DNA of 64,000 nt from a virus (taxonomy: Duplodnaviria; Caudoviricetes): IMG/VR virus record IMGVR_UViG_3300033141_001125, positions 671 through 64,670 of that record. One strand, given 5' to 3'. Positions 6,944-39,313 of the stretch are shown here, one piece after another (the first letter of the stretch is position 1; each line of letters opens with the position of its first letter). Position numbers and translations under genes: made by a program. The notes beneath the pieces are model-generated. The model had not been told where the DNA came from, ran no database searches, and was given only the letters and a program-made list of their open reading frames with translations.

Positions 6944-8179
6944 TTACTCAAAAACCTCATCGTTCATTGCATCAAAATAATGTTCATCGCTTCCCCACGG
7001 AATAAATACCATATATGGCAATTCATATGTTGGATCAAGTGTAACACCAAGCTCGCCGTCATCATCTGTATAACCCGTCCAAGAAAAAACCCGCATGCTT
7101 GTAAGTCCCCATTTAATCAAGCCGCTGTCATATCCAACTGCAAGAATCTGTTTATAATTCAATTTACCAGCAGGGAGCTTGTACTTTTTGCGCAATGCAA
7201 AACTGCCTGTAAAAACATAATCTCTCATTCCTGTATAATTGCCATCAGGCAAGCGATACATCATAAAATCTAAGTAGTCTTGTACAGTAAACGGTGAATC
7301 AGGATTGTATTTTTCATCACGGCAGAAATTCACTAATCCTTGATTTGTTGGAAAACACTTATCATAGGTATCATAATACGGCTTGAAAAAATCACTATGT
7401 CCCTCAAATCCTGGCTGAAAAACTTCTAATCCATACTCTTGAGCTAAATTTATTGCACGTAGCACAGACATGCGATCTGCTCCACGTAACAAACTCTTCC
7501 CCCTTGACTTTGCGCGTGTAATAAGATCATCACCAAGTGTCTCAACTTCACGCACGGTCATTCTTTGTACCTGCTGGCTTGACAAGTGCATTTGATCAAT
7601 CCATACACCAGACACGCCAACTTGAGCAAATAATTCAATCAATGGTTCTGGATCGGGCAACCACTCAGAAACAAGCGGATTGATTGCCGCCACAACTTTA
7701 TGACCCATGTCAGTCAGTGTTTTAACTGTTGCCAATCGTTCTAACGGAGGTGGCGCGCCAGGAGAAATTTTCTTTGCTATAAATTCATCTAGCATTTCGA
7801 TGGTAATATACCATACTGCCGATTTCAAAAAGTCCAGCGCATCTAACATGCCTGGCCCGGTCTTTGTCTCAAAAGACAACGGGATACCCAAATCTGTCAT
7901 TGTTTTAATCAACGGCAATGTATATTGATAGGTTGACTTTGCAAATGGGTCACAGCGGTTTGATAACACAACCGGATAGCCCTCTTTTAGCAATTCAGCA
8001 GTTAAAGTTGTGCGATTCTGATAATCCGCTAATAGGTTCATGGCTTTGGAAAGTTCAATCTTTCCATTTCTTTGGTTGAGCTTTGCAAAACAATATACGC
8101 AGCCGTGCGAACAAGAACCATAAGAAAATTCAAGCGGCACTGGAAAATGCAAAAACTCTCCATAATAAGGTACAATCAT
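6944..8179 (-). CDS. radical SAM protein (spore-photoproduct-lyase-like family)
   Basis: CxxxCxxC motif CSHGCVYC near N-terminus, followed by SPL-like 'DPF', 'TK' and 'RL..V..L...G' segments. Confidence 0.88.
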   Translation of the reverse strand: MIVPYYGEFLHFPVPLEFSYGSCSHGCVYCFAKLNQRNGKIELSKAMNLLADYQNRTTLTAELLKEGYPVVLSNRCDPFAKSTYQYTLPLIKTMTDLGIPLSFETKTGPGMLDALDFLKSAVWYITIEMLDEFIAKKISPGAPPPLERLATVKTLTDMGHKVVAAINPLVSEWLPDPEPLIELFAQVGVSGVWIDQMHLSSQQVQRMTVREVETLGDDLITRAKSRGKSLLRGADRMSVLRAINLAQEYGLEVFQPGFEGHSDFFKPYYDTYDKCFPTNQGLVNFCRDEKYNPDSPFTVQDYLDFMMYRLPDGNYTGMRDYVFTGSFALRKKYKLPAGKLNYKQILAVGYDSGLIKWGLTSMRVFSWTGYTDDDGELGVTLDPTYELPYMVFIPWGSDEHYFDAMNDEVFE

Positions 8180-8937
8180 TATTTCACTCCATCAAAGGGT
8201 TCTGAATATAAATCCAACAAATACAAAAACGCTTTCAGGTCATCTTTAATTCCATTATGATTTTTGAATTCGCGCCATTTTTCATTCTGTTCACCAGTAA
8301 GAACAATTGGAACGACGTGCCTTCTTGCAAGAGATGTTGAGGGCTGTTTATCACCACCAGAAGAAACAGGAGGATTTGCTTCTTCCCGGTCGCCCTCAAC
8401 ATCACTTTCTTGCTGACCCTGAGCGCTATAAATATCTTGTTCTTGACTAGCAAAAGCCGCCAGTGGTGCATCAAACGTTTCTCGATATTCAATATCAAAT
8501 GAATTTGCTAATTCGCCCTCATTGAACATATCTAGCAATGCAACGCCTTGACGCTCGACCTCTTGAACCATCTCCGCGTCCCACTCTAGGCCAACTTCAC
8601 TTGAGCGATTATCAATAATTTCATAAAAACGTGCTTTTTCTCCATCTTCGCCAGCACCGTCAATATCAAGATCGTCAAATTGCAATACTACAAGTTCATC
8701 TGGGCTGGCGGCAACAATTTTCAATGGGATACCAGCATCTTTTGCCGCCGCCACAGTTTTATTTCCAGCAATGATCACACCGTCTTTATCCGCCACGACA
8801 GAACGCCTTGCTCCAACTTCTGCAATGGACTTTGTGAGCATATACTTTCCGCGATCAGTGCCTTTATTAGTATTAAAAGGATTTAAGGTTACATCGGACA
8901 TCCACAACTCCAATAGTAAATCGCAGGAACAAACCAC
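8179..8937 (-). CDS. ParB/Srx-like N-terminal domain protein (true start probably 8901)
   Basis: 'NPFNTNKG...KSIAEVGARRSVVADKDGVIIAGNKT...IIDNRSSE..EWD' is the phage ParB-like pattern; acidic tail. Confidence 0.8.
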   Translation of the reverse strand: MVCSCDLLLELWMSDVTLNPFNTNKGTDRGKYMLTKSIAEVGARRSVVADKDGVIIAGNKTVAAAKDAGIPLKIVAASPDELVVLQFDDLDIDGAGEDGEKARFYEIIDNRSSEVGLEWDAEMVQEVERQGVALLDMFNEGELANSFDIEYRETFDAPLAAFASQEQDIYSAQGQQESDVEGDREEANPPVSSGGDKQPSTSLARRHVVPIVLTGEQNEKWREFKNHNGIKDDLKAFLYLLDLYSEPFDGVK

Positions 8938-13237: not shown

Positions 13238-14056
13238 CTAGAAGATCATGGCCCCACCTGTATAGGCTTGCGGCGCTGCCATAAGCACCTTGTTGCTCCC
13301 ATCGTAATTTTGGCCGATGGTGCAATACGGAGAATTTTCACTTGTCGGCATAGCATGCCTCAATACTTCTTGTGCTGTTTTATAATCAAACACATAAAGA
13401 TGATGACGTTTTGACAGCTTTTTGATTTCTGGCTGTGATAGCTCTACAATCTCAAGATGGCTATATACAGCGTCAGATTCTTCTAGGGCTGTGTCATCGT
13501 CATAATACTCAAGAATCTCAGGATTAAGGCCGGATGCTTTATACATCACCTGGACAGCGAATGCTTTTCCAAGCTCAACACACTCTAAAACCTTTGCTAT
13601 TTCATCATTTGACTTTGCAAAAGCCCTGGAAAACTCTCTGAAAAGTTTCTTGCCAGGAAGATCGTCCAAGTCAAAAAATCCAATGATTTGGCTTTGTTTC
13701 TCTGTATCTAAACCGATCATCCCCTTTGCAATGTACAATGGCAAAACACCATCAGCAATCAAATGTTGCACGTCATCAGTGAGTTGCAACAATTTAACTC
13801 TGCTGCTTACCAATTTTGCCGTCATATTTAATTGCCGTGCAAGTTCTGCATAGCTAATTCCTTGATCATCAATGCACTTTTTGAGTGCATTTGCCTGCTC
13901 AATCTGATTCATATTTTTCATATCTAATTGTGACATCATAATAACTCCTTTGATTAGGGTTTTAAGGCTTTTGGCCTTTCGAGAACACATAAACCATGTT
14001 ATGTGTTCTGAAATGTCAAAAGTTAACTTTGCCTTGTGCATCCACATACACATCAA
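13238..14056 (-). CDS. ParB/Spo0J-like HTH protein lacking the N-terminal CTPase domain (start probably ~13940)
   Basis: 'MNQIEQANALKK...GISYAELARQLN...VSSRVKLLQL..DVQ.LI..G.L' is the ParB HTH pattern. Confidence 0.7.
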   Translation of the reverse strand: MMCMWMHKAKLTFDISEHITWFMCSRKAKSLKTLIKGVIMMSQLDMKNMNQIEQANALKKCIDDQGISYAELARQLNMTAKLVSSRVKLLQLTDDVQHLIADGVLPLYIAKGMIGLDTEKQSQIIGFFDLDDLPGKKLFREFSRAFAKSNDEIAKVLECVELGKAFAVQVMYKASGLNPEILEYYDDDTALEESDAVYSHLEIVELSQPEIKKLSKRHHLYVFDYKTAQEVLRHAMPTSENSPYCTIGQNYDGSNKVLMAAPQAYTGGAMIF

Positions 14057-20331: not shown

Positions 20332-21309
20332 TTACAAACGTCCCTCAACAAATCTCATAGGAGATAATCCATTTGTGCTAATAACATCAAAATATCCCCC
20401 TGCATCAATACCGTATCCATCAACAGATGTATTATATAGTGTTGAATAAACACTTAATATACCCTGCGGATCAACGCGCACACGTCTTATCTCGTTTCCT
20501 TTCACAAAATGCATCCATGTTCGCTCTATAATCATTGTGAAAACATATGGAGTTAACATATTTGATGATTGCGATATCCTATAATTTTCATTTATATGTC
20601 TAATCGTGACCCTTCTTGGATCACCTATTTTCAGTCCATCATTATATGAAACTTGTTTCCAGAATTCATGCGATAACTCATTGCTATATTTGAATGTAAT
20701 CATTCCCAGGGCAAACAACGATGATTTGACTAACTTCTTTTTGTTCTCTCCGAAATTGATACATCTAAGATAATCTAGTGCGTATTTTTCCCATTCAATA
20801 ACTAAATCGGCTATTATTAATGGAGTTAACATAACCGCATCACTTCTCGGTTTAAATCCAGTATAGATTTTTCTTATTGCCGCCTTCGTCCATCCTATTT
20901 CAGATTTTGATAATTGCGTTTTTCCTTCCAAATAACCCATAGATGCGTTTTGACCCCTTGGGCCACCAATGTCAATAGTTGCATAAGCGATTGATACATC
21001 ATCCATATTATCGAATGATTTAACTGACACATTACTTGCAACAGCCGTGTTTGATTTAATAACAGCAAGCAATCTGTGTTGTCCGTCTATCAAATAATAT
21101 TTATTGTCAACAAGAGCAAAACATATAACTGTTTGTTCATTATACTCGCCGATGGCAATTGAGTTACATAATTTTCTTACTTGATATATACTAACCTTTC
21201 TTTGTTTGCTATATTTATATCTATCAATCCAAAAAGTAGCCATTTCAGGTGTGATAACAACTCTTTTAACACAACTATTGCCATTATCAAATATCTCTTT
21301 GAGTTTCAT
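20332..21309 (-). CDS. ParB/Srx-like (DGQHR) domain protein, AT-rich
   Basis: 'ITPEMA...QR.VS...LIDGQHRLLAV...ID.G..R'. Confidence 0.7.
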   Translation of the reverse strand: MKLKEIFDNGNSCVKRVVITPEMATFWIDRYKYSKQRKVSIYQVRKLCNSIAIGEYNEQTVICFALVDNKYYLIDGQHRLLAVIKSNTAVASNVSVKSFDNMDDVSIAYATIDIGGPRGQNASMGYLEGKTQLSKSEIGWTKAAIRKIYTGFKPRSDAVMLTPLIIADLVIEWEKYALDYLRCINFGENKKKLVKSSLFALGMITFKYSNELSHEFWKQVSYNDGLKIGDPRRVTIRHINENYRISQSSNMLTPYVFTMIIERTWMHFVKGNEIRRVRVDPQGILSVYSTLYNTSVDGYGIDAGGYFDVISTNGLSPMRFVEGRL

Positions 21310-31816: not shown

Positions 31817-32035
31817 CTAAACTTTCAGTTTTTCAACAACGTCTAATGTTTTGATTACCTCAAAAAGCATGCCCTGTGCTTGTTCAAGATTCTCAATCTT
31901 GATGCACGTTACCGATCCTTTTTGTGTGCTATCATCTTCCTTAAACAGATTGTCAATCTCCACACCTATACCTTTAGTTAACTCTCTGATTGCCTTGTTT
32001 CTATTCATTTCAATCCTCCTGTGTGTGTTTCTCAA
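31817..32035 (-). CDS. hypothetical protein
   Basis: AGGAGGATTGAAATG start motif after leftward promoter. Confidence 0.65.
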   Translation of the reverse strand: MRNTHRRIEMNRNKAIRELTKGIGVEIDNLFKEDDSTQKGSVTCIKIENLEQAQGMLFEVIKTLDVVEKLKV

Positions 32036-32206
32036 ATCTAGCTATATCTTACCATGCTTTATACACTTGTCAATAGGCAAAACGTAAAACTATAGAAAAT
32101 AGTGACATTTGTCATATCTCATAAGCAAAATGTCATAAAATGCTTGACAAAGACGTAAATCATGGTAAGATATGTATAGATTTGAGATACAGGAGAAAAC
32201 GAGATA
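32006..32206. promoter_or_regulatory. second divergent early promoter pair with operator TGACA-TT-TGTCA
   Basis: TTGACAA...CATGGTAAGAT in both directions; homologous to 14971-15177. Confidence 0.8.
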
Positions 32207-32403
32207 ACAACACACAAAAGATTTATAAAAGACATAAATTAAAGAGCATCGAGATCAATTATGAGAGTCGTTTAATTGCTCTCGTAGGAATGCCAGGCCA
32301 AGTAAAACAGGCAGTTAAAAAACCGCTTGATGCTGAAATCGGATTAACATATTCACCTATCAGCATTTCAGAATGTGCATATCTGGAAATGGAGTAAATA
32401 ACA

Positions 32404-32595
32404 ATGAATAACACAGTATCAATCAAACAGCTACGGCAAATTTTATTTATAGTCGACGATCAAGGCATGAGCATAAGGAAATTACGAAAAGCCCTGTTTG
32501 ACATTGGAAAAACTCAGAAAACTAAAAACATCTCAACTGATAAACCACTCAATTATAATGAATGGTCAACTCTGATGATGGAGATAGCCGTATAG
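32404..32595 (+). CDS. hypothetical protein
   Basis: GGAG RBS. Confidence 0.55.
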   Translation: MNNTVSIKQLRQILFIVDDQGMSIRKLRKALFDIGKTQKTKNISTDKPLNYNEWSTLMMEIAV

Positions 32596-32659
32596 CCGTT
32601 TCTGAGTGTGTATATAATGGAAGCACATTATACACCCAGAAACGGCTTAAAATTGATTT

Positions 32660-33034
32660 TTGAGGGATACAGAGACAATGAGCAGACATCCAGACAGGTT
32701 AGAGATAAAAGCAAAACAGTGCATTGTCACAATGACAAAATACGGATTTCTGGTTGAATCACCAAGCAAAAAAAGCTATCTGGTTCACATGGTAAACCAG
32801 CTTCCTATTTGTTGTTGCCAGTGGAAACAGTATCATCAAGGCAAATCCTGCTCACATGAGATAGCTGTCGAGCTATGGATGATGCAAGCCGGTGGATACA
32901 AGGCATATTTGGTTGAATCAAAAGAACATGCACAGAAGCAGCATAAAAAGTATTGGAAATGTGAAGATGGCATTTGGTTTGTTCTGAGAAAAGACGCTCC
33001 AACAAAAATGCCAAAAGTGATTAGTTCTTTCTAA
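32660..33034 (+). CDS. SWIM zinc-finger protein
   Basis: CxC...CxH. Confidence 0.7.
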   Translation: MRDTETMSRHPDRLEIKAKQCIVTMTKYGFLVESPSKKSYLVHMVNQLPICCCQWKQYHQGKSCSHEIAVELWMMQAGGYKAYLVESKEHAQKQHKKYWKCEDGIWFVLRKDAPTKMPKVISSF

Positions 33035-33072
33035 CTTTCAATCTAATCCTTTTTTATCCTTCTAGCTTCTCC

Positions 33073-33157
33073 TTTATTTATACATGAAAAATAAAATAAA
33101 ATAAAATAAAATATATATATAATAATATGAACGCAATCATACACCAATAGTACACTA
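33073..33157. repeat. AT-rich origin-like element, copy 2
   Basis: 33-bp (33073-33105) and 22-bp (33136-33157) blocks identical to 9413-9445 and 9473-9494. Confidence 0.7.
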
Positions 33158-33236
33158 AATGCTGCATTAGAAAAAGCTGAACGTCATATCGGTTTATGAC
33201 ATACGTCATTTGAGTTTTAAGCAGTTTCAGGTTATC

Positions 33237-33355
33237 ATAATTATGGAGCTTGGTTCTGTGGGAGATGGGAACTGAACGCGCCGGGACAAACGGATAATTC
33301 AGAGTTGGGCTGGTATAAAGGGGATTCCAGCAACACAACCAAGCTCCATAATTAT
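33237..33355. ncRNA. structured element closed by a perfect 19-bp inverted repeat
   Basis: ATAATTATGGAGCTTGGTT/AACCAAGCTCCATAATTAT enclosing two inner hairpins. Confidence 0.5.
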
Positions 33356-33393
33356 TTGAATTTTAGTTTATATTTAGCAAGGGAGTATTTGAA

Positions 33394-33690
33394 ATGAACA
33401 AAAAGGGAATCATCCGCAAGGTACGAAAAAACGCGCGAGGTCAAACGGTGTATTTCTCGCAGTCCGAGGGATACATCATCAAAGCCGGTGAACTCCGCCC
33501 GCTTCCCGGCGAGGCCACCCGCCGCACGCTGGGCGGATACAATGGAGCTGGGTTCAGTGTTTCTATCGAAACGTACCTCGACAAAATTGCTAACCGGGAA
33601 CTCGTCGACTTTTCCCCAGCGGCGAACGCGCTAGGGATCGACCACAAGGCGCTCCCCGCGTTTTTGCAGGCGGCGGGCTTTGGATACTAA
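33394..33690 (+). CDS. hypothetical protein (GC-richer than flanks)
   Basis: GGGAG...TTGAAATG start motif. Confidence 0.65.
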   Translation: MNKKGIIRKVRKNARGQTVYFSQSEGYIIKAGELRPLPGEATRRTLGGYNGAGFSVSIETYLDKIANRELVDFSPAANALGIDHKALPAFLQAAGFGY

Positions 33691-34024
33691 CCACCAAAAG
33701 TTCCGCAACTTCGCCGCCAGAATCGCCGCCAATAGAGGAGAGGCTTTAGCTTCTTCTCTGTTGGCATTTCGTAAAATTTTCATCCAAGAAAAACGGGACT
33801 GGTCAAAGTCAAATGCTCCGCGTATCGGTTGGAAACGTGGGGAATTGTTTGAATTTATACAGGCCATTCTCGCAAATGGAGATTGGCGTTCGGAATGGGG
33901 CGATGTCGGTTATTACGTCGCTCAGGCCTGGGGCTGGTTGTGGTGGGTTTATGCTACGATCACGCCTGAATCAATCATAAAAAGCGCGTGTCTGAAATTT
34001 GAAAAACGCGCAAGAGAAGAATAA
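33680..34024 (+). CDS. hypothetical protein
   Basis: operon-packed; 'EWGDV.YY' is weakly MazG-like. Confidence 0.55.
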   Translation: MDTNHQKFRNFAARIAANRGEALASSLLAFRKIFIQEKRDWSKSNAPRIGWKRGELFEFIQAILANGDWRSEWGDVGYYVAQAWGWLWWVYATITPESIIKSACLKFEKRAREE

Positions 34025-34036
34025 AGGAGAAGAAAA

Positions 34037-34189
34037 ATGTTGATCTGTGAAAATTGCGGATGGCACGGAGATGATACTCAACTAGTAGCGTTAACAGATA
34101 AACCAGACGATCTTGATTTTTGGTATTGCCCAGATTGCGGCTGTACTGAATTTGAAGAGGAAGAGGAGGAAAGCAATGTGGGGAATTGA
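34037..34189 (+). CDS. 50-aa zinc-ribbon protein (not in ORF track)
   Basis: AAGGAG RBS; MLICENCGW...YCPDCG. Confidence 0.6.
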   Translation: MLICENCGWHGDDTQLVALTDKPDDLDFWYCPDCGCTEFEEEEEESNVGN

Positions 34190-34535
34190 ATTTAGGAAAG
34201 ACACAAGCAATAGTTTAATTTGCGCATCAGCGGTTTTTGAGTTACGTACTTATGGCAGCATGGGCATAGAATACAAAGAAATGCGTGTGCGCTGGCATCC
34301 AGATATTGGAATTGCTATTGATGAAAGAGACGATGACAATTTTAAGTGCATCAAGAATCATGCGGAGCCAAAAGATGTTGAAGATATACTCCCAAAGAAA
34401 AATGATTTCGGATATGACTGGACATACGCAAACTTTGTATTAGCAATGACATTTTTTGGAGAAGGCTATAAATTGGGCAATGAAATCGGTTATCGCCGCG
34501 GATTAAAACAAGGGAGATTGCAATGCAACAGGTAA
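34176..34535 (+). CDS. hypothetical protein
   Basis: GAGGA RBS before MWGIEF. Confidence 0.6.
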   Translation: MWGIEFRKDTSNSLICASAVFELRTYGSMGIEYKEMRVRWHPDIGIAIDERDDDNFKCIKNHAEPKDVEDILPKKNDFGYDWTYANFVLAMTFFGEGYKLGNEIGYRRGLKQGRLQCNR

Positions 34536-35551
34536 CATTTAACAGTGTATGCGCACAAGGAACGATTAAGAACGGCCTCAGTCTAGGCCAATACTCAAGA
34601 GGCCGTCACACACAACATCCGCACCAAATAAATTGGGGAATTGGTAATTGGATGGTTGGAAACGGCGTAGAGCATTACGCCAATGTTATCCAGCGGCAGG
34701 ACTTCAATCGCCTGTCAGAAGGCAATGAGGCAATTGCCTTGTATTATACCGCGCTTGGTCTTTTGCTTGGGCCTGGCTATCACGATATTCGAGGATTGAC
34801 TCTCGGCTTGCCAGTTGACATATATACAGATGACGAAAAAGCAAAACGCACAATGCGCAATGTTGGAAAATTCCTGAGAGGCGAACATTCATTTATGCTT
34901 GACGGTGAAGAAATTACCATAAATGTTCAGAGTATCGCCAAGTGCCCTCAGCCAGTCGGAGCTTACACCACATTTCTATACCAGCAACGACAATTTCCAG
35001 ACGGCCAAATGTGGGCCGTCGCTGATGGTGGATTCAACACGCTGGATGTGTTTGCAGTTGCGTATATCGCAGGTCATCCACGAGTGTATCATAAATACAC
35101 CGCTGGAACTAACCTGGGTATGGCTGAGGCTTGCCGTCATTTTATGCAATCGTTCAAACAATTAACAAGCAGGGACATTACTTTACAGCAAGCTGATATG
35201 TACCTGCGTGAAAAGAAGCCAGAAGTAACATATATTGATCACGGCACATTTGATCTTACATCAATAAAAAATGTTGCATTAGAATCACTTTCCAGTCGTG
35301 TGATTACTTTTTTGCGTAATCAGTGGGGCGAACCATTGCCTTTTGCAGGACTGATTTTTGCTGGTGGAGAATTTGAGGCACTGGGTCAGCACGTTGTGAC
35401 CAAATATCCAGGTGCATTTGTGTTGGATGATCCAGTTATGGCAATTGCTACAGGGCTGTATTATCAATCTACGATGGTTAAATCATGGAAGGGTGGCTTG
35501 GTTGTTGGCCTTGATCCTGGGTTTGGAGCAATCAAGGCCGTCACAGAATGA
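34523..35551 (+). CDS. parM: ParM/StbA-family actin-like ATPase, circularly permuted
   Basis: FNSV, GLP, PQPVGA, DGGFNT (phosphate-2), AGG, DDPVMAIATG; phosphate-1 motif VGLDPGFGAIKAV at the C-terminus. Confidence 0.88.
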   Translation: MQQVTFNSVCAQGTIKNGLSLGQYSRGRHTQHPHQINWGIGNWMVGNGVEHYANVIQRQDFNRLSEGNEAIALYYTALGLLLGPGYHDIRGLTLGLPVDIYTDDEKAKRTMRNVGKFLRGEHSFMLDGEEITINVQSIAKCPQPVGAYTTFLYQQRQFPDGQMWAVADGGFNTLDVFAVAYIAGHPRVYHKYTAGTNLGMAEACRHFMQSFKQLTSRDITLQQADMYLREKKPEVTYIDHGTFDLTSIKNVALESLSSRVITFLRNQWGEPLPFAGLIFAGGEFEALGQHVVTKYPGAFVLDDPVMAIATGLYYQSTMVKSWKGGLVVGLDPGFGAIKAVTE

Positions 35552-35820
35552 AAATAAACAGCCGTGTTTTGTTTGACGTTGATCACGTGCTAGATGATCA
35601 GGTATTCAATACGTATGAACTGTTATGCCTCATCCACGACGGGCATATAAAACCAGGCTCAATCATACGTAGAAACGAGATTGAATACACTGTTATACGT
35701 TGCAATTATCAAAAATACCGTGGTGAATTCTATGCAATTTTCAGTGATACTACAAAAGAAGTTTACAGAGCACAGGAATTTCAGTTTGAGAAATTGAAAT
35801 ACAGACCTATAGTACTTTAG
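35548..35820 (+). CDS. hypothetical protein
   Basis: ATGA overlap with parM. Confidence 0.6.
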   Translation: MKINSRVLFDVDHVLDDQVFNTYELLCLIHDGHIKPGSIIRRNEIEYTVIRCNYQKYRGEFYAIFSDTTKEVYRAQEFQFEKLKYRPIVL

Positions 35821-35865
35821 TCCTATATAACATAACGTTACAGTTTTGTAAATACTGCAAACTCG

Positions 35866-35895
35866 TTGTAAATATTACAAAAACCGTGGTATAAT
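35866..35895 (+). promoter_or_regulatory. promoter overlapped by TTGTAAATA(C/T)T(G/A)CAA repeats
   Basis: TTGTAA-18-TATAAT with TG extension. Confidence 0.5.
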
Positions 35896-35936
35896 GTTTA
35901 TAGATGAGGGCAAGAGAGTGACCAGAAAAAAACAGA

Positions 35937-36056
35937 CGGGGATTCGTTAGCAGCTAATCCCCCCTCTTCAAGAGTCACACAAACCAGAACAGTGGGTAAA
36001 CCATAGAGTGATAAGAAAATGCTTGTAAGTTCTAGCTTGTGTGATTCTTGAAGGGG
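35937..36056 (+). ncRNA. structured leader RNA (short hairpin plus ~28-bp stem)
   Basis: CTCTTCAAGAGTCACACAA pairs TTGTGTGATTCTTGAAGGG, with G-U pairs on the + strand. Confidence 0.5.
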
Positions 36057-36096
36057 TTTAACAGCCCGTAATTAGCTCAGCAGGGAGAGATTGAAA

Positions 36097-36251
36097 TGTT
36101 AAAATCACTTTGGAAGGAAATCTTTGGAAATCTGGGGGCATTTTTTTGCTCTCGGTATTATCGACGTGAAAGCAGATTGAAACCCATCTGCAAAAAACTT
36201 GGTTGGGGTTTTTACTTTCTTCAGATGGGTTTTAAGAGGCCCACTGATTAG
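36097..36251 (+). CDS. ~51-aa hypothetical protein (not in ORF track)
   Basis: GGGAGAGATTGAAATG start motif; MLKSLWKEIF... Confidence 0.5.
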
Positions 36252-36255
36252 ATCA

Positions 36256-36365
36256 TAGTTCTCTCCTGCGCACACACTGATCGAGTGCGCGCAGGGCAGA
36301 GCGATGAACGCTCATCCGGGAATCATTCAGCCTGACCCGGCAGGTAAAAGGGAGAAATTGAGATG
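36256..36365 (+). repeat. 110-bp structured intergenic direct repeat, copy 1
   Basis: near-identical to 36601-36710; ends with RBS and ATG. Confidence 0.92.
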
Positions 36366-36596
36366 GATGAAATACGAGAATGCGCAGATGGACTTTTCAC
36401 ACTCAGGACAAACAGAAATTACAAGTGCATAGCGCAGAGCGGGGAAAAATGGGTCGCGGGAACGTTCGACGAAAAACGAGGGCAATTCTGCGACGGAAGA
36501 AACTTCGCCCGCGGAATGTCAAAACGATCCCTCTTGTCCGCACACACGCGAAGATTCAGCTCGAAAACAGCAGCAATAAAATGGATGCTTGACTGA
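36363..36596 (+). CDS. hypothetical protein between the repeats
   Basis: start supplied by repeat copy 1. Confidence 0.65.
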   Translation: MDEIRECADGLFTLRTNRNYKCIAQSGEKWVAGTFDEKRGQFCDGRNFARGMSKRSLLSAHTRRFSSKTAAIKWMLD

Positions 36597-36600
36597 TTCT

Positions 36601-36710
36601 TAGTTCTCTCCTGCGCGCACACAGTGCGAGTGCGCGCAGGGTAGAGCGATGAACGCTCATCCGGGAATCATTCAGCCTGACCCGGCAGGTAAAAGGGAGA
36701 AATTGAGATG
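36601..36710 (+). repeat. 110-bp structured intergenic direct repeat, copy 2
   Basis: near-identical to 36256-36365. Confidence 0.92.
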
Positions 36711-37094
36711 TTAAACATCTTTTGTGCTGACTGCGCAAGCCATATCTTTATCTCATCCGTTCCCATTGAGTGCTGCCCCGTTTGCGGTGCAGAATTCGAT
36801 ATCAGAGATGAAGAAAGTATACCCAGTTTTGTAGGTAGTGTCAGCGTAATCGCCACCATTAACATAAACCTCTTCACCGTCACCTGCCGCCTGCAAACGG
36901 CAGGGGGGATGATGGGGAGGCTAAGCATAGCCTCCTACGAAGACAGCTTCAGGGAATTGGCCCCTAACCGAAACGCGCTCGGCTATGCAGCCGATCGCGC
37001 ACATGAGCTCTGGCATATTTTGCTCAAGCTCCAGGAGTGGACACCTGGAATAGTAATTCCAGGAGTAACATTCTCACTCCCATCAAACGAGTAA
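36708..37094 (+). CDS. zinc-ribbon hypothetical protein
   Basis: CADC...CPVC; start supplied by repeat copy 2. Confidence 0.65.
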   Translation: MLNIFCADCASHIFISSVPIECCPVCGAEFDIRDEESIPSFVGSVSVIATININLFTVTCRLQTAGGMMGRLSIASYEDSFRELAPNRNALGYAADRAHELWHILLKLQEWTPGIVIPGVTFSLPSNE

Positions 37095-37131
37095 CCCGCC
37101 CCAGTGGTGCAAGGCGGGGAATGAGGAGAAA

Positions 37132-37326
37132 ATGAAACATTATCAAATTAAAGTCACTCCAACAATAAATGCACTGCTACGGATAACTGGCAATCGTATC
37201 ATTGCCACAACGAATGAGATGTTTAGTCAGAATGAGTGCATTGTGGATTGCGAAACATTTGAACGCATTGTTGAGAATGTTTCAGTAACAGTAACAAAAG
37301 TTTTCAAAAAGGAAAGCAATATATGA
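37132..37326 (+). CDS. hypothetical protein
   Basis: GAGGAG RBS. Confidence 0.6.
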   Translation: MKHYQIKVTPTINALLRITGNRIIATTNEMFSQNECIVDCETFERIVENVSVTVTKVFKKESNI

Positions 37327-37526
37327 AAAGAACAATAAATAAATCAGTTAGACTGTCAATCCTACGCAAATTAAAACGCAAAGGACTGCTAGAAGGAAAA
37401 AGCCTACGCGATCTAGGAAAGCTATTCGGAGTACATTTCTCTCAAATTTCACGTGATATGAAAGACCTGCCAGCACTTGAAGCCGAATACAAGCGCGTGA
37501 AAAAGATGTTAAAAGAGGATGCTTAA
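37323..37526 (+). CDS. small HTH DNA-binding protein
   Basis: 'KSLRDLGKLFGVHFSQISRDM'. Confidence 0.7.
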   Translation: MKRTINKSVRLSILRKLKRKGLLEGKSLRDLGKLFGVHFSQISRDMKDLPALEAEYKRVKKMLKEDA

Positions 37527-37545
37527 TCGCATTCTCTTTTTTTGC

Positions 37546-37603
37546 TTGACAAATATATCAAATTATATATACTTACAACATAACATATATCAGGATATAT
37601 AAA
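37546..37603 (+). promoter_or_regulatory. promoter with repeated ATATAT(C/A)A boxes (candidate RHH operator / parC)
   Basis: TTGACA-16-TATACT; several ATATAT motifs up to the RHH start. Confidence 0.5.
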
Positions 37604-37604
37604 C

Positions 37605-37853
37605 ATGAGAGTTTATTTTGACTTAGCTAACGATCTTGTCGATTGGTACAAATCGCAAGAGAATAAAAGAACGGCCTTGAATAATGCAATCAGAGCAGGA
37701 AAACAAGGCCAGAAAGACGAAATTATGCTTGAGCTTGCAGAAATAAAGTGCATCCTGCAAAACAAGATGATCATTTCGGCTGATGAAGAACCGCCACAAA
37801 GCGACTTCTCACTTGACGGTTTTGAGTCAATGGCCGTCATAGACAATGACTGA
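37605..37853 (+). CDS. ribbon-helix-helix protein, ParR-like adaptor candidate
   Basis: beta strand 'MRVYFDL', 'DLVDWY.SQENKRTALNNAIRAG', acidic C-terminal tail. Confidence 0.55.
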   Translation: MRVYFDLANDLVDWYKSQENKRTALNNAIRAGKQGQKDEIMLELAEIKCILQNKMIISADEEPPQSDFSLDGFESMAVIDND

Positions 37854-37867
37854 CTAAAAGTATATAT

Positions 37868-39313
37868 GTGCCCCTTGCAAAAAAGAATGCCATTTTTAAC
37901 ACTTTAGACATAGGCGCACTTTCAGACATACAACACAGGAACGTGAAAATGGATACAAAAGAAACCTATTTAATAGAGTTCGCTCACAATATTATTGCCA
38001 GCCTGACTGATCCTGAGATTTGCGGCAGGAAGAATATTGTTGCGCGCCCGATCAATGGCCGGCTTGCAGAAGTCACGCCGGGGCCACGCGCTGGCGCTGT
38101 CACATTACTGGATACAAATTACAGCAATCATCTAATAGAAACTTTCAGAAAACACGATGGCTTGTTAGCTCATAAGCTTTTGCCAAACAACTGGAAGAGA
38201 AAAGTAGATCATGTTTCTGTTTATGGCTTCCGTGGCTGTGTAAGGGTCGAAGCGGCTTGGCCTAAGGCTATGCAAAAAATGGATGTTACCGTTTCGCTGA
38301 GTCGCATTGACAAAAATCCTTACAAGAATGGTAGATTTCTAATTGGTAAAAATGAGCGTGGTGCGGACATCACGCTTGGCCTAGATGACGTGACACCAAA
38401 CTTTCTTTTTGCCGGTCTGACTGGAAGCGGCAAAACCTGGGCTATGCGCTCGGTGATTGGTCAATTGTCACGTTACATAGACACGCAAACAATATTGATT
38501 GACGGAAAATATGGCGATGGGCTTGGTTGTTTGAATGGTATCCGGGGACAAATAGGGCCTCTTGCTGTGGACATCGAAAACGCAAAAAACGCACTGGCTT
38601 GGGTGATCAATGAGATGCACACCAGATATACAAAAGTAGCACATCTGACACCACAGGCCAGAAAAGCAACTTTTGATGAAATGTCACGCATTGTAGTAGT
38701 TATTGATGAAGTGCAAGAGTTCACAAACGATCTTGCTGCCGCAGCAATGATTAGTAAGTTGGTTTCTCAGTGCCGTGGTGCAAAAATTTATTGCTTGATT
38801 GGCACACAGCATCCACGTCAAGATGCTTTTGGTGATACGAGCGCCAAGCGTAATTTAGTAGGCAGGATCGTGCTACTTGTTGAAGACGAAATCGCATCTC
38901 ACGTTGCGCTTGGCTCCTGGACTCCGAAGGCACATGAGGTACTACTCGGAAAAGGGGATGCTTATGCAAAAGTGCCTGGCGCAATTCAGCGCGTCCAGAC
39001 CGCTTACATTCCAGAAGATGACCTGCTTTCTTTGGTTGGTGGTCAACCGCTACTAAAAGAATGGCCGTTGTTCAATCCAGACATTCTGGGATTCTATCCT
39101 GAGAGGATGGGCCGTCCGCCAGTGCTTTTTACTATGCAAGAATTGGCAATTTCCGCAAGGTGCGCATCATTAAATGAACGCCGCATTATACTTGATAGAC
39201 ACCTACAGAAACATACCGGAAAAAGTATGGGCGTTCCAAGATTGCGCAAACTCTTAGAGAAAGGTAAAGAACTTGATGCAGAGTTAGGAGTATTAAACTA
39301 TGGAGGCGAATAA
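37868..39313 (+). CDS. FtsK/SpoIIIE (TraB-like) ATPase
   Basis: GLTGSGKT Walker A, LIDGK, EMHTRY, VVVIDE Walker B, GTQHP, LGKGD. Confidence 0.9.
   Translation: MPLAKKNAIFNTLDIGALSDIQHRNVKMDTKETYLIEFAHNIIASLTDPEICGRKNIVARPINGRLAEVTPGPRAGAVTLLDTNYSNHLIETFRKHDGLLAHKLLPNNWKRKVDHVSVYGFRGCVRVEAAWPKAMQKMDVTVSLSRIDKNPYKNGRFLIGKNERGADITLGLDDVTPNFLFAGLTGSGKTWAMRSVIGQLSRYIDTQTILIDGKYGDGLGCLNGIRGQIGPLAVDIENAKNALAWVINEMHTRYTKVAHLTPQARKATFDEMSRIVVVIDEVQEFTNDLAAAAMISKLVSQCRGAKIYCLIGTQHPRQDAFGDTSAKRNLVGRIVLLVEDEIASHVALGSWTPKAHEVLLGKGDAYAKVPGAIQRVQTAYIPEDDLLSLVGGQPLLKEWPLFNPDILGFYPERMGRPPVLFTMQELAISARCASLNERRIILDRHLQKHTGKSMGVPRLRKLLEKGKELDAELGVLNYGGE

Follow-up and report, generated by a model that had tools for sequence, protein, structure and literature searches.

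Whether the actin fold can be encoded with its first structural element last is the question raised by a gene in a 64,000-nucleotide stretch of tailed-phage DNA, hereafter the window (positions 671 to 64,670 of IMG/VR record IMGVR_UViG_3300033141_001125; Duplodnaviria, Caudoviricetes). To our knowledge, and as far as the papers searched show, actin, Hsp70, MreB and ParM all begin with the strand-loop-strand element that holds the phosphates of ATP. The gene at 34523–35551 on the + strand encodes 342 amino acids (aa) plus a stop, and its product has the features of a ParM/Alp-type actin-fold ATPase in which the phosphate-1 hairpin, LVVGLDPGFGAIK, is placed after the last helix. A preliminary description, made from the DNA letters without database searches, had proposed that this protein is a circularly permuted ParM. 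The open reading frame (ORF), Pfam and PHROG matches, homologues and their alignment, an AlphaFold2 (AF2) model, Foldseek and VIA comparisons and a rotation test have now been brought to bear on that proposal; sequence, profile and predicted-structure evidence are concordant, and the order is almost certainly a real, conserved circular permutation of the ParM/Alp actin fold.

The protein begins MQQVTFNSV and ends ...DPVMAIATGLYYQSTMVKSWKGGLVVGLDPGFGAIKAVTE. Its chain start (residues 2–12; 34526–34558, +), modelled as strands 2–7 and 10–12 (DSSP of the AF2 model), is equivalent to strand beta3 of canonical ParM; in agreement with the proposal that the chain opens at the strand that normally follows the first hairpin, a profile of canonical relatives aligns from its position 26. 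The internal blocks that had been listed are all located in the protein (GLP at residues 95–97, PQPVGA for the PQP.GA pattern at 142–147, DGGFNT at 168–173 and AGG at 280–282). The succession of terminal helix, linker and phosphate-1 motif is likewise reproduced by the model, in which a helix (residues 307–317) is followed by a new linker, TMVKSWKG (318–325; 35474–35497, +), variable in the alignment, and then by the relocated beta1-beta2 hairpin (326–342; 35498–35548, +) with strands 326–332 and 336–341. Within the hairpin lies the phosphate-1 motif DPGFGAIK (D331–K338; 35513–35536, +). We take the block DGGFNTLD (168–175; 35024–35047, +) to be phosphate-2, by the usual name of that motif; D168, G170, F171, T173 and D175 are invariant in 44 permuted sequences, as are G281 and G282 of the adenosine-type block FAGGEF (279–284; 35357–35374, +). 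The name phosphate-2 also appears in PMC1079889.

A Shine-Dalgarno-like AAGGGAG (34510–34516, +) stands 6 nt before the ATG, bearing out the good ribosome-binding site (RBS) that had been claimed; there are only 13 in-frame codons between the preceding stop and the ATG, and the reading frame is without interruption. The forward frames of 33900–34540 contain no D.G.[GSAN]..[KR]-type motif, and the claim that no phosphate-1 motif is encoded upstream of the ATG therefore stands. The stricter motif [ILVM][GAS][ILVMF]D[PA]GFG..K occurs once in the six frames of the window, and this occurrence is the tail of the protein. At the 3' end the TGA stop (35549–35551) lies within the ATGA that provides the start of a 90-aa ORF directly downstream (35548–35820, +), the overlap that had been described.

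Pfam ALP_N (PF17989) matches the protein with 45.2 bits (cut-off 26.3), residues 3–146 corresponding to profile positions 18–148 of 148, so that the first 17 positions are unmatched at the N-terminus; MreB-like_C (PF21522) matches residues 167–291 with 30.3 bits (cut-off 27.8), and PHROG 691, "partition protein", is matched with an E-value of 2.5e-27. Against PDB sequences the single protein gave only chance-level matches. The in silico rotation recommended in the preliminary description, in which the tail is moved to the N-terminus, was evaluated with a profile of 187 canonical relatives and 347 positions. The native protein gives two matches that are out of order (residues 2–317 to positions 26–342, and residues 327–340 to positions 5–18), whereas the rotated copy gives a single match to positions 5–342 and scores 287.1 bits versus 273.6 for the native order. 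Rotation raised the score of every one of the 54 permuted proteins tested (mean +12.7 bits, minimum +0.4), and the median profile start of their main match moved from position 26 to position 5. With respect to the traits of the ParM/StbA/Alp family, to which the protein belongs by predicted fold and profile, the phosphate-1 (D331–K338), phosphate-2 (D168–D175) and adenosine (G281–G282) blocks are present and hold invariant residues across the 44 sequences, and the predicted model has the two-domain actin/ASKHA fold; the canonical linear order, in which phosphate-1 is N-terminal, is absent, the profile matches being out of order. Since the order is the only one of these traits to fail, the protein is best described as a permuted variant of a known family.

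The permuted order is shared by many relatives. Among 108 homologous proteins found via a word index, the DxGFG motif is C-terminal (in the last ~40 residues) in 44, near the N-terminus in 62 and absent from two, and none of the 108 has it at both ends; the search for other permuted homologues that had been advised was thus positive. In the alignment canonical relatives read M..IGVDPGFGxFK(beta2)..loop..VIPSVVGVG, and permuted relatives start M..I..PSVVGVG and end ..ANAxGLARYARR-linker-VIGLDPGFGGFKAVxL. Of the 24 columns that do not vary across the 44 permuted sequences, six belong to the tail (G329, D331, G333, F334, G335 and K338), which is under purifying selection. A tail in decay, on a ParM relative with a deficient ATP site, has nothing in its favour beyond the unusual order and is very improbable: the D, G, F, G and K residues of this tail do not vary among sequences whose identity to the window protein falls as low as 28–38%. 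An artefact of assembly, frameshift or gene calling might be suspected in a record that is a metagenome-derived virus genome. However, 43 further proteins of the homologue set share the arrangement; permuted ORFs with their own stop codons were read from DNA at 25 of 72 classified genome loci and one of five classified viral loci; a relative from the window protein's own clade is found on 27 contigs, and another on a 67-kb contig; and the frame here is uninterrupted. Because the permuted order is conserved in a clade that also has canonical-order relatives, and recurs in independent assemblies, an artefact, which the preliminary description had named as one outcome that would undo its proposal, is ruled out and keeps next to no probability. 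A natural, conserved family in which the phosphate-1 element comes last would mean that the actin fold and its nucleotide site tolerate re-threading.

The AF2 model (from a 44-row alignment) is of high confidence, with a mean predicted local distance difference test score (pLDDT) of 92.2 and a predicted template modelling score (pTM) of 0.89; residues 18–29 are its only poorly predicted part. Both strands of the C-terminal hairpin, at which the suggested AlphaFold check was aimed, belong to blocks with pLDDT 94–97, and the ESM Atlas's own model of the protein has a pTM of 0.82. The best Foldseek matches of the AF2 model are Ta0583, the pCBH ParM, Dh-cParM1, other ParMs and CorM, with a probability of 1.00 to Ta0583 and the ParMs. 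In VIA-align, model residues 1 to 317–326 pair with solved chains from about residue 18–61 onward in all 50 of the matches listed, with Z up to 26.4 over 288–307 residues; as the solved chains align only from there, their first hairpin has no sequential partner and the tail of the model remains unaligned. A fold search of BFVD matched phage ParM-like proteins such as Gp506 of Bacillus phage G, in an output that gives no topology. Because the first 17 positions drop out of Pfam-style profile matches without warning, and the tail out of sequential structure alignments, a protein of this kind may pass for a ParM truncated at its N-terminus.

The N- and C-termini of canonical ParM and actin folds lie side by side in subdomain IA, and for this reason a relocated hairpin can fold back against beta3 and supply the missing part of the nucleotide site in cis. 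That the hairpin would indeed lie there and close the site of its own chain is suggested by the high confidence of the model, by the strict conservation of the tail and by its homology to profile positions 5–18. The hairpin is, on the other hand, located at the chain end on a variable linker of ~8 residues, a geometry that would also suit a strand swap in trans, in which it would complete the ATP site of the neighbouring protomer and couple polymerisation to assembly of the nucleotide site. Filament assembly would then be identical with nucleotide-site formation, a mechanism of polymerisation known for no actin. This arrangement appears improbable in view of the AF2 monomer, which is confident throughout with the tail included, of the adjacency of the canonical termini, for which a short linker is enough for closure in cis, and of the canonical forms of the same subfamily that occur in the same gene context.

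As to how the order arose, the canonical chain (beta1, phosphate-1 loop, beta2, beta3 and so on to the C-terminal helix) is opened here in the beta2-beta3 loop, such that the permuted chain runs from beta3 through subdomains IB, IA, IIA and IIB to the usual last helix, from which the 8-residue linker leads to beta1, phosphate-1 and beta2 at the end of the protein. Old termini joined by a variable linker, with the chain opened in a loop, are what the general model for circular permutation, duplication or fusion and then loss of the ends, would leave behind; we infer the same route here, the most likely origin being a tandem duplication or fusion and then loss of both ends. Profile positions 15/16–21, corresponding to beta2, are found at both ends of five of the 54 permuted proteins (P0056, P0057, P0060, P0070 and P0119); this duplicated beta2 is likely a relic of such a duplication-truncation origin. 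The number of events was addressed with 129 sequences rotated to a common order and stripped of the hairpin, which give a tree with a weak backbone. Quick trees imply 6 to 9 switches between the orders, the 129-sequence tree needing 9 changes for the C-terminal form; yet a tree that holds all 47 permuted rows together beats the free quick tree by 14.5 log units (approximately unbiased (AU) test, p-AU 0.605). Because the backbone is weak and the AU test does not reject a single clade, repeated origins of the C-terminal form are not claimed, and the data are compatible with a single origin within the subfamily.

Two separate lineages have a putative second cut site, which lies after helix alpha1. 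An exhaustive search of representatives gave 323 matches at E <= 0.001, and the best 150 of these include P0147 and P0193, in which the hairpin is mid-chain: the order runs from the GLPVEV strand after helix alpha1 to the usual last helix, then through a linker to the hairpin, beta3 and subdomain IB, with helix alpha1 last. P0147 has two collinear relatives, P0252 and P0254 (58–68% identity), and its nearest canonical relatives are ~60% identical; the mid-chain hairpin lies at about residues 242–254 in the protein sequences of P0147, P0252, P0254 and P0193. P0254 is found on a 38-kb contig of a Chloroflexota metagenome-assembled genome (MAG), and the P0193 cluster on contigs of up to 45 kb from four sources, its sister P0180 being canonical. 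Joining the four second-cut proteins in one group, a group named after the tree had been seen, is rejected (log-likelihood lower by 135.5, p-AU 0.007). For P0147 a shallow alignment of 10 rows gave an AF2 model of only moderate confidence (pLDDT 70.9, pTM 0.68); model residues 1 to ~245 align with solved chains from about residue 80–161 to their end in 46 of the 50 matches listed, the exceptions being 7bvy, 7e1c, 5tky_B and 5e84_A (which ends at residue 411 of 606). A viral scan with P0147 gave no match. A sister set cut at a second site would extend the same tolerance to another part of the fold. The most far-reaching picture, in which the actin fold of this subfamily has been re-cut repeatedly (one widespread C-terminal-hairpin form and two independent cuts after alpha1) and some hairpins complete the ATP site of the next protomer, seems to us a long shot.

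Comparison with characterised systems places the protein near partition-type actins and sets its order apart. Ta0583 (2fsj/2fsk/2fsn), Dh-cParM1 (8x1i) and CorM (9rmi), the best structural matches (Foldseek E-value 2.5e-19, TM 0.71–0.75; VIA Z 24.7–26.4), have the same ALP_N and MreB-like_C pair, but their hairpin is N-terminal and the model aligns only from their residue 20–59. Plasmid ParMs (R1; pSK41, 3js6; pCBH, 6ixw/6izr; type II ParMRC) share the actin fold (VIA Z 21–24), the phosphate-1, phosphate-2 and adenosine blocks, a location on mobile elements and a module with a small ribbon-helix-helix (RHH)-like protein that has an acidic, hydrophobic C-terminal peptide. They differ in that the order of the window protein is permuted and identity is only 14–20%, and in that the phage locus has no recognised iteron centromere, its adaptor candidate is not adjacent, and its conserved neighbour is an FtsK-like ATPase. 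AlpC, from prophage CGP3 of Corynebacterium glutamicum, has the canonical order. With AlpA it offers a further parallel: a phage-encoded actin-like protein with a DNA-binding adaptor, involved in positioning and replication of viral DNA.

No description of a permuted ParM or permuted actin-fold protein was found in the main texts of the literature searched, and the statement in the preliminary description that none was known agrees with this. A term search of the CorMR preprint (10.1101/2025.06.27.661541) gave no occurrence of the string "permut"; in CIRPIN (PMC12667903) "ParM" is matched solely through an author's name, and PMC1079889 mentions permutation in a general sense only. Such sequences could be present without comment in supplementary phylogenies accompanying the CorMR preprint or the Dh-cParM1 paper. 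New here are a member from a tailed phage, a clade of Chloroflexota mobile elements with an FtsK-like partner, the likely duplicated-beta2 relic and the putative second cut site in two lineages. Permuted ParMs would offer natural variants for studying assembly of the fold, closure of the ATP site and behaviour of filament ends.

At 64,670 bp the record covers a complete virus genome, which has direct terminal repeats, and its gene content is that of a phage (tape measure, large terminase, major head protein, endolysin, primase-helicase and helicase-methylase). Relatives of the permuted gene come almost entirely from Chloroflexota MAGs (Anaerolineae, Caldilineales, Thermoflexia), with some from viral contigs; copy number reaches 14 in one MAG, and all five copies in another are permuted. 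Of 301 genomes sampled evenly from the same phylum, 17 contain a relative, with a match that reaches the tail only in the centre genome G001, so that the permuted form is sporadic in this sample. A metagenome scan with the window protein's own clade gave seven distant loci, and no locus from that clade itself.

Of 69 classified loci, 56 (24 permuted, 32 canonical) have the gene followed by that of an RHH-like protein of ~120 aa, which shows the N-terminal pattern RLYPGxDDDLIxWL...AIKxALRRG and an acidic, hydrophobic C-terminus. In 36 loci, among them the window, an FtsK/SpoIIIE-like ATPase is encoded nearby, and integrase, excisionase-type helix-turn-helix (HTH_17) and HTH_36 proteins also occur near the Chloroflexota loci. 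FtsK/SpoIIIE-like ATPase, ParM-like protein and ~120-aa RHH-like protein form a conserved module of Chloroflexota mobile elements (loci L001–L107), all three genes of which are retained in the window in altered order. Since permuted and canonical forms occupy the same module, they presumably do the same job. The window's RHH-like gene (37605–37853, +) encodes an 82-aa protein with weak homology to the small protein found after ParM in the Chloroflexota loci; it is the sole match to the neighbour-family profile among 855 frames of the window (E-value 0.002, collinear alignment), which makes it a candidate adaptor or regulator. It stands immediately before the gene of a 481-aa FtsK/SpoIIIE-like ATPase (37868–39313, +; PHROG 1358, E-value 4e-36), which BLAST clustering groups with the upstream ATPase of the 36 loci; PF01580 is matched by a member of that cluster. 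Prediction of a complex between the ParM-like protein and the 82-aa protein scored 0.72, compared with 0.57 for a control with an unrelated chain 1, and thus speaks neither for nor against binding.

The protein is expected to be an ATP-dependent filament former that would position or segregate the DNA of its mobile element, here a complete 64.7-kb tailed phage without recognisable integrase, which may live as a plasmid-like prophage. Such a filament could act via a ParR-like adaptor, or with the FtsK-like translocase in replication or transfer. The altered dynamics or evasion of recognition suggested in the preliminary description find no support here. The full statement, that of a true circular permutant with its hairpin in cis and a filament function, is on balance likely to be correct, although several observations count against one or another part of it. 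Contact of the tail with beta3 and the phosphate-2 loop is inferred from model confidence, homology and conservation. No tandem-fused intermediate was found among the longer proteins, in a search that is itself weak evidence. No convincing iteron-type centromere was seen next to the gene, and no iteron array in 32000–38000; the repeats found in that interval are short, scattered families and two 113-nt copies at 36253 and 36598. Finally, the window's RHH-like gene is 2 kb downstream and adjoins the FtsK-like gene, not parM, which weakens a simple ParM-ParR-parC reading.

A different role is conceivable, in which the protein would not serve type II partition; together with the RHH-like protein and the FtsK/SpoIIIE-like ATPase it would instead act in DNA transfer or in positioning of replication, comparable to AlpC/AlpA. 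The recurrence of the ATPase in 36 loci and of the RHH-like protein in 56 speaks for such a role, as does the fact that the two genes abut in the window; a precedent is AlpC, a prophage actin on which viral DNA depends for efficient replication (PMC4446434, PMC5539076). Against this role, both the fold and the best matches in structure are those of partition-type ParMs, and a role outside partition is a possibility to be taken seriously but rather unlikely. The occurrence of FtsK-like and RHH-like genes on Chloroflexota phages and integrative elements points to a poorly known DNA-handling module.

Searches of the phage record for recombinases gave no PF00589 or PF00239 match. ParB-like proteins are encoded at 8179–8937 and, as weak matches, at 13238–14056 and 20332–21309. 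The 90-aa ORF that overlaps the stop of the ParM-like gene was assigned to no family in Pfam and PHROG searches; in the gap 3' of it is a 28-nt inverted repeat (35963–36056; 86% complementary, 38 nt between the arms), which could be a terminator or a protein-binding site. Further downstream two 113-nt direct repeats (36253–36365 and 36598–36710; 95% identical) flank a 77-aa ORF, and each has an internal GC-rich inverted repeat and ends in an RBS plus ATG.

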